Below are positions 41,285-45,187 of a DNA stretch of 64,000 bases, piece by piece; position 1 is the stretch's first letter, and every line of letters begins with the position of its first letter. The stretch is from the sequence record OZ346219.1, one strand, 5' to 3'. The position numbers and the translations under genes were made by a program. A model generated the notes under the pieces. The model saw nothing but the letters and a program-made list of their open reading frames with translations, was not told the origin of the DNA and did no database searches. The stretch is from a phage.

Positions 41285-41605
41285 TTATTTATAAATTTCG
41301 ACGATCTGCGCTGGAGTCAGCCCGTCTACATTAATCAGAGTATCAAGCCCAAAACTACGGAAACCTTCAACTGCAATTTCATATACTGGCAAAGATGTTT
41401 CTGATTCTTTACGCGGTTTTTCAACATTAGGAACTAACCACTTTTCGTATGTTTCAAACGGCATCAGTGCCGGATCTCGCGTGGCGATCATCTCACGGAC
41501 AGTACCATCTTTCTTAGTAAACTGCAAAGAGTGAGTACCGACCGAAAACATTTTCTTTAGTGCTTCACGAAGTGCGATATTATCAACTTGTTCAGTCATT
41601 ATCAA
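41285..41605 (-). CDS. hypothetical protein (position of T4 31.1)
   Basis: 106 aa ORF. Confidence 0.55.
   Translation of the reverse strand: MIMTEQVDNIALREALKKMFSVGTHSLQFTKKDGTVREMIATRDPALMPFETYEKWLVPNVEKPRKESETSLPVYEIAVEGFRSFGLDTLINVDGLTPAQIVEIYK
41286..41293 (-). promoter_or_regulatory. possible T4-type late promoter for gene 31
   Basis: TATAAATA on - strand 43 nt upstream of gp31 ATG. Confidence 0.3.
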
Positions 41606-42119: not shown

Positions 42120-42323
42120 TTAACCGTATACGCGAAAGTATTCTACTGATCCGTCGCTATACTGTTTTACATTGAATGTATTCACGCCATGATCATTGCT
42201 CATAATGACATACACACTGCGACGCTCATCACTAAACGGGTTAACTGGTGCTGGTTCAATTTCAACATTAAAACCACGTTTAGCAAGTGCTTCGCCTAAT
42301 TTCTTGAGTTTATCGGTAAACAT
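42120..42323 (-). CDS. hypothetical protein (67 aa)
   Basis: ORF only. Confidence 0.45.
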   Translation of the reverse strand: MFTDKLKKLGEALAKRGFNVEIEPAPVNPFSDERRSVYVIMSNDHGVNTFNVKQYSDGSVEYFRVYG

Positions 42324-43222
42324 TAAAAGTCTCCGTAGTTAACCTGAAAACATTCTACACCAATTGAGCGATACATGTCAACCACTTGATCACGGTCATC
42401 TACCGCCAAAACAACATGATAACGCGGTGCAATTTCAGAGAAGAAGATCTCTTTCTTCACTTCATGATCAGGACGACGATCATTAGTTTCACGTTGAAAG
42501 TGATCACTCGGTTCAATACCCTGTTCACGCAACCATTGCAGAGTATCTTCTTCGCAAACATCCTCACGCCCTGAGCATGTAATGATACGATAACCATTAT
42601 CACGATACAGTTTAAGCATTTCGACCACTTGCGGACGAGGTTTATCTTCTTTGACCTTTGTCCAGTCAAACGGATGACGACCGCCCTTATCCGCTAATGT
42701 CCCATCAATATCAAAGATCACTGCCTTTGGCAGCATGGTATTCGGTTTGTATACTTCTTGACCCATATATTCCTGCATCAGATAAAATTGGTTGCGCAAA
42801 TGAGAAAGTGGAATTGCTTTCTCACCGCGATAGAAATTACGTTTCTTTAGTGTCTCAAATGATTCATTGAACACTTGTTCAGTATACACCGCGTTAAATT
42901 CTTTTGCAAGTTCTTTGTAGAATACACGATGTTTTTCTTTCAGGTTGGTATCAGAGATAATGATACTTAATCCGCGTGATAGAGTCTCACGAGCAATCAT
43001 TCTCTGAATAGACTCTACCAGCTTTTCTTTTTCCTTAGTATACTTGTATTTCAAATGTGAGTCAACACCAAACAACATAAGACGAAGATCATCACGATTC
43101 ACATTACGATAATTACTAAACCGTTTACATGTTTCCATCGCCCATGTAGTTTTACCGGACCCAGAACAACCAACGGTTAAAATCACTTCACATTTCGGCA
43201 TTATTTCTCCTTCGGTTTGCAC
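42323..43222 (-). CDS. pseT: polynucleotide kinase / 3'-phosphatase PseT
   Basis: 299 aa; P-loop GCSGSGKTTWA; HAD motif AVIFDIDGTLA; RIGVECFQV as in T4 PseT. Confidence 0.92.
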   Translation of the reverse strand: MQTEGEIMPKCEVILTVGCSGSGKTTWAMETCKRFSNYRNVNRDDLRLMLFGVDSHLKYKYTKEKEKLVESIQRMIARETLSRGLSIIISDTNLKEKHRVFYKELAKEFNAVYTEQVFNESFETLKKRNFYRGEKAIPLSHLRNQFYLMQEYMGQEVYKPNTMLPKAVIFDIDGTLADKGGRHPFDWTKVKEDKPRPQVVEMLKLYRDNGYRIITCSGREDVCEEDTLQWLREQGIEPSDHFQRETNDRRPDHEVKKEIFFSEIAPRYHVVLAVDDRDQVVDMYRSIGVECFQVNYGDF

Positions 43223-43533
43223 CGTTCCTCATTAAGTTCTTTTCGATAATAACACATGATCAACTTACTTTCAAGTGTATATCTCTTAATATCCGCAAGC
43301 CAGACTCTGAATTTTTGGGAGTCCTCCCACGACATAGAAACTCTAGGTTTACCGTCTATTGTATCCACTTTCAGGTCAATGTCAACTTTTTCTATTGGTG
43401 CTGGTAGTGGAGGATGTAATTTCGGTTCCTGTGAATAATGGTCCATTGTACACGAAGAAAGCGCAAATACAATAGGCAAAGCGAAGACATGGATTATGGA
43501 GGTCTGAAAATTCTTATGTGCTTTCTTAAACAT
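43201..43533 (-). CDS. putative o-spanin (outer-membrane lipoprotein)
   Basis: start set at internal MFKKAHKNF; lipobox LSSC; Pro-rich PKLHPPLPAP; track ORF extends to 43653. Confidence 0.5.
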   Translation of the reverse strand: MFKKAHKNFQTSIIHVFALPIVFALSSCTMDHYSQEPKLHPPLPAPIEKVDIDLKVDTIDGKPRVSMSWEDSQKFRVWLADIKRYTLESKLIMCYYRKELNEERCKPKEK

Positions 43534-43649
43534 CCAGTGTATCACGAAAATTGAAAACACCATCAGGATAATAATGCTTGCACCTATCCACAGATAATCA
43601 ACCAGATTAAAATTGCTTATCTGCTCTTGTGTAGGCAATATTTCTATGC

Positions 43650-43973
43650 TCATTTAGTAGCCTCCTTTAATTCTTCGGTAAACTCCTTAAATGAATCATT
43701 AAGCTGTTTCTCTACCAACTTTGGTTTTTGTGCTACTACATAGCCTCGTGTAGCGTCTTTCATTGCTTTGTTTTGTTCTTCCGCAAACTTAGTTCTTATT
43801 CCATACATCTCCTTTTGTAGTGAGTCTACGACCTTCATCTTTTCATCGGTCTTTTTCTTATACTCTGTAAATTCCTGATTCAGTCGATCTACCTCCTTTT
43901 TATTTTCCCACCACATATTACCACCTACCCCTAGCAACACAGAGATGATAACAATGTATATCAGCTTTGACAT
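43650..43973 (-). CDS. putative i-spanin
   Basis: start set at MSKLIYIVIISVLLGVGG (N-terminal TMD) then coiled-coil; position of T4 pseT.3. Confidence 0.5.
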   Translation of the reverse strand: MSKLIYIVIISVLLGVGGNMWWENKKEVDRLNQEFTEYKKKTDEKMKVVDSLQKEMYGIRTKFAEEQNKAMKDATRGYVVAQKPKLVEKQLNDSFKEFTEELKEATK

Positions 43974-43988
43974 ATTACCCCCAACGAC

Positions 43989-44011
43989 AAAAGGCGGGGA
44001 ACTAGCCCCGC
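43989..44011 (-). terminator. rho-independent terminator (leftward) after rnlA
   Basis: A-run + ggcgggg aactag ccccgc. Confidence 0.55.
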
Positions 44012-44017
44012 TTATTA

Positions 44018-45187
44018 TTACCAATCAATCTTATCAGCCGGAATAAGTTTCTTATAATTCCGTAGATAGTAAGTTTTCATTGAATCCAGAATACGGTCAT
44101 AATCAAGACCATCAAATGCAATCATCAGACACATGAAAATATATGCTTGTGCATCACCATGTTTACGTGATTCGATAGTCGCATTTGATGCATATGTCTT
44201 TCTGTCTTCTCCCGCGTGTGCGTTATAAAATTCTGTTGCTGTCGTGAAGGCATTGCGAAGAATAGACCTGAATGCTTCCTCGAATAGCTCGATTCGTTCC
44301 AGTGCTTCCGGTTCGCCTTCATATGCAGCACGCAAATCATCGGTTTCGCTTTCTACGACATAGTAGATCAGGTTATTAGGAAACATCGATGTGTTTTTAA
44401 TGTTATGCACACCAATATACCATTCACTCTTCACTTTGAACATTTGACCGTCTTTAGTGCGTGCAACAATTCCTTCGATACCTTCTGCGGTCCGAACTTC
44501 ATCAAGAATATTGCTAAAACGCGCTGAATCAACCTGTAACGCATTTACCAGATGAGGACGTAGGATTGCGTCAGAAAATAGCATTTGATGCGGTACGTAC
44601 TCTCCTGTGACGTTATGGCGTACATTCAGAAGTGTTAGCGACGGTTCAGAATATTCTACAACAATTCGGTTGCTGGGCGCTGTATATTCAAAGTTGAAAG
44701 TATAATCAGACCCAATATCAGCAATCTTAGCGCGTAGATCCGCATACTTCTCTGAATACAGAAGACCGTTTGCTCTCTCTGCCTGGCTTGAGTACAAGGC
44801 CGCTTTAGACTTCAACTGAACATAGCCGTTATCAATGTAGGTGCTTACTAGACTACCGTCCATTTTGTCCATGACCATTTCCACATCTTCCGGCTTAAAG
44901 CGAGCGCGATCATTCTCACCCAAATTAAAAAACTTCTCCATAGGACGAGATGCAATGCGGACAGGTCGGTCTTTATCATCGATTTCAAACATGATCCCGC
45001 GACACTCTAACGCATCTGGTTTATTCCACATTTCCGGTTTGCTCAAGTACAGATAACTAAAAATGCGCATACGGGTTTGCATCGCCGTAATTTCATCTTT
45101 GTAATAGAACGTATCAGATCCGTCACATAGTGCCATCAGATTTTTGAACAATGCTAAAACTTTTTTGTTGTTTTCTTTTGTTGACAT
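44018..45187 (-). CDS. rnlA: RNA ligase 1 (RnlA, gp63)
   Basis: 389 aa; ALECRGIMFE, PVRIASRPMEKFFNL, nucleotidyltransferase KMDGSLV, NFE..AP.NRIV as in T4 RnlA. Confidence 0.92.
   Translation of the reverse strand: MSTKENNKKVLALFKNLMALCDGSDTFYYKDEITAMQTRMRIFSYLYLSKPEMWNKPDALECRGIMFEIDDKDRPVRIASRPMEKFFNLGENDRARFKPEDVEMVMDKMDGSLVSTYIDNGYVQLKSKAALYSSQAERANGLLYSEKYADLRAKIADIGSDYTFNFEYTAPSNRIVVEYSEPSLTLLNVRHNVTGEYVPHQMLFSDAILRPHLVNALQVDSARFSNILDEVRTAEGIEGIVARTKDGQMFKVKSEWYIGVHNIKNTSMFPNNLIYYVVESETDDLRAAYEGEPEALERIELFEEAFRSILRNAFTTATEFYNAHAGEDRKTYASNATIESRKHGDAQAYIFMCLMIAFDGLDYDRILDSMKTYYLRNYKKLIPADKIDW

Follow-up and report, generated by a model that had tools for sequence, protein, structure and literature searches.

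From which start codon is the o-spanin of this phage made, and what is encoded ahead of its lipoprotein signal? The question concerns two adjacent genes on the minus strand of the window, meaning the whole 64,000-nucleotide stretch of phage DNA analyzed here (sequence record OZ346219.1). An earlier note on this DNA proposed that they encode a two-component spanin pair, an inner-membrane i-spanin (here PseT.3) and an outer-membrane o-spanin (here PseT.2). It left two candidate starts for the latter: the first ATG of the open reading frame (ORF) at 43653, or an internal methionine that follows a 40-residue extension (Met41). We propose that PseT.2 is translated from the upstream ATG as a 150-residue precursor, that residues 1–67 of this precursor serve as a leader containing a pair of hydrophobic helices, and that PseT.2 is processed by LspA as a lipoprotein. 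We give this reading as a whole a probability of about 0.7.

The proposed pair stands. PseT.3 matches PHROG 739 (Rz-like spanin, E = 7.8e-27) and PseT.2 matches PHROG 812 (Rz-like spanin, E = 2.4e-32), the latter over residues 54–150 only; homologs of PseT.2 also carry the precomputed Pfam assignment PF26831 (Phage_T4_Spanin). A tblastn search with PseT.2 matched 1124 T4-like records. The mature part of PseT.2 is 39–40% identical to aligned PseT.2 of a T4-type phage (RB68) and of JS98, with C68, C134, and C145 invariant. The two genes form an adjacent pair of the separated architecture, overlap by 4 nt, and lie beside pseT, in an order that agrees with that of T4-type and JS98 phages. SpaninDB lists RB49, Phi1, and JSE in its T4 spanin family for both subunits, and pseT.3/pseT.2 of T4, the only pair for which this was shown, complement lambda Rz/Rz1, with both Cys residues essential (Kongari et al. 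2018; PMC6139136). The 1.2-kb spanin region is 95–99.8% identical in nucleotides to 59 complete RB49-like coliphage genomes (Krischvirus, Straboviridae), in which both genes are annotated as pseT.3/pseT.2 or as spanins. Judged by its sequence, the window is an RB49-like Krischvirus, a T4-type coliphage.

The features of PseT.3 are those of an inner-membrane protein of type II: a single transmembrane domain (TMD) at the N-terminus, then a periplasmic domain of helical or coiled-coil character. Its N-terminal hydrophobic 19-mer (about residues 4–22, LIYIVIISVLLGVGGNMWW) has a Kyte-Doolittle hydropathy of 1.86, and charged residues make up 45% of the 85-residue periplasmic part, which lacks Cys. 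The earlier description of ORF 43650–43973 as a transmembrane helix followed by a charged coiled-coil had anticipated this architecture. A 107-residue i-spanin gene is called in all divergent relatives. The curated PseT.3 sequence in SpaninDB is of the same type as the 107-residue protein of the window, and one coiled-coil (residues 25–56) is given for the i-spanins of RB49 and JSE (PMC6139136). RefSeq annotations of pseT.3 in RB49 (locus L001, 1785–2051) and JSE (locus L016, 596–862) are 267 nt long (88 residues) and start at an internal Met, and the TMD is therefore lost; other records and all metagenome gene calls have the 324-nt (107-residue) gene, and the SpaninDB curators made the same correction.

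In the downstream ORF, the reported lipoprotein signal and Pro-rich segment are both present. Residues 41–68 of PseT.2 read MFKKAHKNFQTSIIHVFALPIVFALSSC, and a PROSITE-style lipobox pattern matches the protein once, at ALPIVFALSSC, placing the predicted lipidation site at Cys68 (43452–43450). The four residues L65, S66, S67, and C68 are invariant in all lineages while flanking residues vary. The residue at +2 after the Cys is Thr or Ser across lineages, never Asp, and is Thr here. PseT.2 hence has an o-spanin lipobox, [LVI][ASTVI][GAS]C without Asp at +2, with its Cys at position 68 and outside the usual range of 15–35. The first 25 residues of the mature protein include 5 Pro. Beyond the leader, an AlphaFold 2 (AF2) model predicts a disordered Pro-rich linker, a beta hairpin (94–107), and helices (109–144); the C-terminal helices hold Cys134 and Cys145. 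No solved structure was found among PseT.2 homologs.

The start codon of pseT.2

The coordinates and character given earlier for the full ORF are correct: it starts at 43653, its ATG overlaps the i-spanin TGA as ATGA (43650–43653), and the 40-residue extension is hydrophobic, with a predicted transmembrane segment at residues 20–38. An AAGGAG Shine-Dalgarno (AGAGAGG in one lineage) and the ATGA overlap are kept in every lineage, including the most divergent. The same coupled o-spanin start is present in T4-type phages, in JS98, and in a relative with a short signal (locus L014). The internal codon differs on both counts. The 18 nt ahead of codon 41 are devoid of a Shine-Dalgarno in every lineage, and the codon itself (43533–43531) is TTG in JSE, ATA in both L024, a metagenome Krischvirus that is 95% identical, and P0008, and ATT in P0007.

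Useful divergence comes from five metagenome proteins found in a search of 5.8 billion proteins. All bear the leader: P0004 is 81% identical to PseT.2, P0005 and P0006 are 72% identical, and P0007 and P0008 are 61–62% identical overall and about 41% over the first 88 residues. These proteins are 151–155 residues long, and all are encoded in a context of rnlA, 107-residue i-spanin, o-spanin, and pnk. Scans of IMG/VR and of JGI metagenomes added only 6 further loci, all 95–98% identical.

Across the extension, the coding frame (+1) is open in 8 of 8 lineages, down to an identity of about 40–41% over the N-terminal 88 residues, whereas each of the other five frames has 1–8 stops. Over its 39 codons, synonymous differences are near saturation and nonsynonymous differences are few. 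Between P0005 and P0006, for example, there are 19.5 synonymous and 4.5 nonsynonymous differences (proportions per site, pS 0.74 and pN 0.05). The ratio of nonsynonymous to synonymous rates (dN/dS) is about 0.13–0.40 where dS can be estimated, and three pairs that are independent in the phylogeny have Fisher p values of 1.4e-6, 4e-13, and 0.013. An open frame under purifying selection implies that the extension is translated and constrained as protein. These comparisons resolve the start ambiguity in favor of the upstream ATG and the full 150-residue ORF, and they mark the 40-residue extension as real, conserved coding sequence.

The earlier note had offered two alternatives for the extension: an unusual o-spanin N-terminus or a small extra membrane peptide. 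The former agrees with an extension that is translated and under purifying selection and with an internal Met that is not conserved. The latter, taken as a separately translated peptide, lacks support, since the extension contains no stop codon in any lineage. A membrane peptide of 67 residues could nevertheless arise after translation, by LspA cleavage.

The two-helix leader

The PseT.2 leader comprises the 67 residues before Cys68, with two hydrophobic helices, and the same layout is found in every lineage (table 1). The N-tail has a net charge of −1 to −3 in all lineages and invariant L6, P7, F15, N16, and L17. It is followed by a first transmembrane helix (TM1), in which the Kyte-Doolittle value over residues 20–38 is 2.53 here and 2.05–2.62 over all lineages, and G24 and M31 are invariant. 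The loop after TM1 has a charge of +2 to +3 in all lineages. The second helix has invariant H55 and F57, and its hydrophobic 13-mer has a Kyte-Doolittle value of 1.8–2.6. The AF2 model, which we used solely for helix boundaries, has helices at 17–44 and 47–67 with a block-mean predicted local distance difference test (pLDDT) score of mostly 74–82. At codon 22 (43588–43590, minus strand), the window, FL04, AV108, and L024 have Trp (TGG), and the other six aligned relatives, including ones that are 60% identical, share a Gly that belongs to a G-x-G motif, at the periplasmic end of TM1. Gly to Trp22 is a nonconservative change at an otherwise conserved position.

Table 1. Features of the spanin locus in the window, with positions in window coordinates
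Feature	Position	Strand	Remarks
pseT.2, o-spanin precursor gene	43201..43653	minus	full ORF, 150 aa; ATG 43653-43651; PHROG 812; homologs PF26831
AAGGAGG Shine-Dalgarno of pseT.2	43661..43667	minus	7 nt upstream of pseT.2 ATG, within the end of pseT.3
Acidic N-tail, aa 1-19	43597..43653	minus	net charge -3; LP...FNL motif kept; predicted periplasmic
TM1, aa 20-40	43534..43596	minus	strong hydrophobic helix; hydropathy, AF2 helix 17-44, pN << pS
Basic loop MFKKAHKNFQ, aa 41-50	43504..43533	minus	net charge +3; predicted cytoplasmic; holds Met41 codon 43531-43533
Second hydrophobic helix and lipobox, aa 51-68, TSIIHVFALPIVFALSS then C	43450..43503	minus	pattern match, invariant residues; predicted cleavage before C
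Mature o-spanin, aa 68-150 (83 aa)	43204..43452	minus	Thr at +2, Pro-rich linker, beta hairpin, C-terminal helices
pseT.3, i-spanin gene	43650..43973	minus	107 aa; ATG 43973-43971; TGA 43652-43650; ORF and PHROG 739
GGGGG Shine-Dalgarno-like run	43978..43982	minus	4 nt upstream of i-spanin ATG; from sequence
Terminator-like GC hairpin	43994..44011	minus	GCGGGG-CTAGTT-CCCCGC then CTTTTGT; between rnlA stop and pseT.3 start
rnlA	44018-45187	minus	gene 5' of pseT.3
pseT, polynucleotide kinase	42323-43201	minus	gene 3' of pseT.2

This layout bears on a further claim, that the lipoprotein signal exists only if translation starts at Met41. That condition falls away: in the full-length protein, the acidic N-tail, TM1, and the basic loop are predicted to give the second helix the in-to-out orientation it needs. 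Translated from the ATGA-coupled ATG at 43653 as a 150-residue precursor, the o-spanin would, under the positive-inside rule, have its N-tail on the periplasmic side and its basic loop on the cytoplasmic side. TM1 would act as a reverse (N-out) signal-anchor and the precursor would be an N-out helical hairpin. With TM1 so placed, the second helix would run in-to-out like a lipoprotein signal peptide, with the lipobox at the periplasmic face. Lgt would then lipidate Cys68, LspA would cut before it, and Lnt would acylate it. The resulting 83-residue lipoprotein is expected to be carried by Lol to the outer membrane because its +2 residue is Thr and not Asp. There, the C-terminal domain of the o-spanin would bind the C-terminus of the inner-membrane i-spanin, and, following the model in PMC6139136, the complex would fuse the inner and outer membranes once endolysin has removed the murein.

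A by-product of this pathway would be a 67-residue hairpin with two transmembrane helices left in the inner membrane. This raises the possibility that the leader is a second gene product, a stable inner-membrane hairpin freed by LspA that acts in lysis, for example one that would associate with the i-spanin TMD or with the holin/antiholin system and time or license fusion. A specific interaction would be in keeping with the invariant P7, N16, G24, and H55 and with the conserved LP...FNL motif of the predicted periplasmic tail; we nonetheless regard an active leader as unlikely.

Other readings of the o-spanin start were considered. If Met41 were the true start, the upstream frame would be open by chance and gene callers would report it for taking the longest ORF. 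The o-spanin family profile starts at about residue 52–54, all other T4-like o-spanins have signals of 15–21 residues, and SpaninDB flags the signal as too long, each as would be expected of an untranslated extension. But strong purifying selection in a frame open in 8 lineages, loss of Met41 from four lineages, and a conserved Shine-Dalgarno and ATGA overlap at the upstream ATG leave that reading essentially refuted by the comparative evidence. It is also conceivable that both starts are used, as in lambda S107/S105, with a 110-residue form from Met41 as the working o-spanin precursor and the 150-residue form as a regulator or by-product. Codon 41 is ATG in most lineages, with near-cognates (TTG, ATA, ATT) elsewhere, and a product starting there would have a textbook signal peptide, in which residue 28 is the Cys and three of the first 7 residues are Lys. 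A dual-start lysis gene, however, has both starts conserved and each with a ribosome-binding site, and this pattern is not found here: the Shine-Dalgarno is absent before codon 41 in all lineages, and the codon is changed in four of them (JSE, L024, P0007, and P0008). Moreover, Met to Leu or Ile is a conservative single-base change expected at the end of a helix, and codon 41 falls within a coupled ORF whose active translation is driven by a Shine-Dalgarno. We consider use of both starts improbable.

Several points weigh against an LspA-processed precursor with a two-helix leader. The retention of ATG at codon 41 in most lineages makes some internal initiation possible. The positional rule for a lipobox (Cys at 15–35, K/R in the first 7 residues) is satisfied only when counting from Met41; standard rules, e.g., PROSITE PS51257, place the Cys within the first 35 residues, and rules of this style, applied from the real start, would not classify PseT.2 as a lipoprotein. 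Overall confidence in the AF2 model is low (pLDDT 60, predicted template modeling score 0.26). In the literature searched, we found no lipoprotein signal documented with a full transmembrane helix ahead of it, and acceptance of such a substrate by Lgt and LspA is presumed. Two of these difficulties, a Cys at residue 68 beyond the range that lipoprotein predictors accept and cleavage by LspA after a preceding transmembrane helix without a precedent found, would suit a protein that stays unprocessed, as a 150-residue inner-membrane hairpin with two transmembrane helices and a periplasmic C-terminal domain. Such a protein would not be an outer-membrane spanin subunit, or would become one only after another kind of release. 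Yet the L-S-S-C is invariant while its flanks vary and +2 is never Asp, the mature domain shares homology with PseT.2 of T4, an o-spanin with proven complementation of Rz/Rz1, and the charge layout brings the Cys to the periplasmic face just as a signal peptide would; that the protein goes unprocessed is thus improbable. A leader that is the neutral relic of a tandem duplication of the signal peptide is more improbable again. Its two serial hydrophobic segments and some short similarities seen by eye (NF..., SII..., VF) could be read that way, but local alignments of TM1 to the signal region are no better than composition-matched shuffles (p = 0.06–0.92, five lineages), on which ground a duplication origin of TM1 was rejected, and purifying selection and the invariant, nonhydrophobic P7, N16, G24, and H55 do not fit a relic. 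A unimolecular spanin of the T1 gp11 type was rejected as well: there is no hydrophobic segment beyond about residue 74, and both hydrophobic helices precede the lipobox.

Distribution and gene context

The leader is confined to the RB49-like clade among the records searched. Of the 1124 T4-like records with an o-spanin match, only the 59 of Krischvirus cover the N-terminus in tblastn. The closest outgroup, P0010 (locus L014), has the coupled start and a 107-residue i-spanin with an ordinary 21-residue signal (MIWRGLLKMLSTLLTPAVLTGC), which shows the leader to be an insertion peculiar to the RB49-like clade. JS98 and a Karamvirus phage were considered as candidates for a long leader and rejected; they have ordinary short o-spanin genes, and the early starts of their tblastn matches reflect read-through of the upstream frame. 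The match in Pseudomonas phage Amme-1 also began early, and its o-spanin has no separate gene annotation.

No relative of the leader was found outside o-spanins. An exhaustive phmmer search of 1.84 billion representatives with residues 1–67 returned only two clusters of the o-spanin family and two spurious long proteins. A profile of the leader searched against 5.8e9 proteins recovered the same 9 proteins and nothing outside the o-spanin clade. PHROG and Pfam scans matched no family to the leader, and no stand-alone small membrane protein homologous to residues 1–67 came from these searches. P0009, a protein of 108 residues from an ENA metagenome that represents one of the phmmer clusters, matches about the first 83 residues of the precursor and bears no resemblance to it thereafter; it is probably the result of a frameshift or of misassembly, and not a natural stand-alone leader.

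The minus strand has the T4 order denA, rnlA, pseT.3, pseT.2, pseT, cd.2, cd, as annotated in RB49. Relative to T4-type and JS98 phages, alc is missing upstream and pseT.1 downstream. The TAA of pseT.2 overlaps the ATG of pseT as TAATG (43201–43203), and this overlap, together with the ATGA between the spanin genes, makes pseT.3, pseT.2, and pseT a chain of translationally coupled genes. A program-made ORF list stretches pseT to a GTG at 43222 that annotations do not use. The longest rnlA ORF (389 residues) shares 65 nt with the 3′ end of denA (45123–45187, minus strand), as in the RB49 annotation. The rnlA start is ambiguous, and other records and metagenome calls take a downstream start (372 residues). 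In the most divergent leader-bearing contig, an extra 158-residue gene with a HAD_PNKP phosphatase domain (L004, 324–800) lies several genes upstream of rnlA and is distinct from the full-length pnk that follows the spanins.

SpaninDB marks the GGGGG run found here ahead of the i-spanin ATG (table 1) as the ribosome-binding site of Phi1 PseT.3 and notes an equivalent GGGGG for JSE (PMC6139136); in the window, this run starts 11 nt past the stem of the terminator-like hairpin. The hairpin itself is a pattern match only, with 1 site found by the consensus scan and 1 expected from shuffles. No T4 late promoter (TATAAATA) occurs near the spanin genes; the closest minus-strand match is at 41286, suggesting that no such promoter serves the spanins directly. 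Matches to sigma-70-like promoters near the spanins are at background level in the consensus scan.

Comparison with known spanins and signal peptides

Extended signal peptide regions (ESPRs) of autotransporters have the layout N1-H1-N2-H2-C, in which charged and hydrophobic stretches, two of each, precede the cleavage site, and the PseT.2 leader shares this layout. However, in ESPRs, H1 is weakly hydrophobic, N1 is basic, and cleavage is by signal peptidase I, whereas in the leader, H1 is a full transmembrane helix, N1 is acidic, and the cleavage site is a lipobox (signal peptidase II). Pfam PF13018 (ESPR) had no match at E<=1 with the leader or at E<=0.1 with the full protein, and the leader does not group with that family.

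In function, the leader comes closest to stable signal peptides with activity after cleavage. Bacteriocin release proteins (colicin lysis lipoproteins) are small lysis lipoproteins processed by LspA. Their stable signal peptide works when expressed alone (van der Wal 1995, cited in PMC5727409). PMC12408356 describes the stable signal peptide of arenavirus GPC as staying with the glycoprotein complex that mediates membrane fusion. The analogy to both is one of mechanism only, with no sequence relationship, and does not count as evidence for a stable or active leader. Unlike with these stable signal peptides, the sorted o-spanin would occupy a different membrane from its leader.

The lineage with the ordinary 21-residue signal (P0010, L014) shares with the window a 107-residue i-spanin, ATGA coupling, a mature o-spanin that is ~66% identical over the aligned part, and the tail YTLESK.IMCYYRK.LNEERC. 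It differs in its signal and in lacking pseT downstream. In L014 (2192–3197) and L015, a 72-residue ORF and then cd follow directly after the spanins, and linkage of spanins to pseT is therefore not universal among relatives.

The closest known system is PseT.3/PseT.2 of T4, a pair of the separated type. Both pairs have synteny with pseT and rnlA and 4-nt ATGA coupling. In both, the N-terminal TMD of the i-spanin leads into a periplasmic domain that is helical, charged, and free of Cys, and the mature o-spanin, of 83 residues, combines a lipobox Cys and a Pro-rich linker with two Cys spaced 11 residues apart (C134/C145 here, C87/C98 in T4). The i-spanin has 107 residues here versus 117 in T4, and the o-spanin leader has 67 residues with an extra transmembrane helix and an acidic N-tail versus a 16-residue signal in T4. 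The pair agrees with the T4 spanin family in every character that can be compared from sequence, and the leader appears as the sole departure.

The PseT.2 proteins of RB49, Phi1, and JSE in SpaninDB are the same protein as that of the window (95–100% identity). Its entries for these phages give an o-spanin of 150 residues with a 67-residue signal and an 83-residue mature part and note an AGGAGG Shine-Dalgarno (PMC6139136). The supplementary table adds the flag 'Too long signal sequence' with a curator's question and no explanation, and the main text of Kongari et al. treats localization signals as functionally insignificant and does not discuss the long signal (PMC6139136). Conservation, selection, and loss of the internal Met are analyzed here and not there, and the evidence on the start codon settles the annotation doubt of the curators for RB49, Phi1, and JSE. 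The spanin pair was already known, its function is ordinary, and it adds nothing new; the two-helix leader is an uncharacterized variant earlier flagged as a curiosity. If our reading is true, PseT.2 would be a naturally occurring lipoprotein whose signal peptide works with a full transmembrane helix ahead of it, an arrangement excluded by predictor rules, and would bear on substrate recognition by Lgt and LspA and on annotation of start codons and lipoproteins. Should the hairpin also be stable and active, a new small lysis or membrane factor would be hidden in the signal sequence of well-studied coliphages that are therapeutic candidates.

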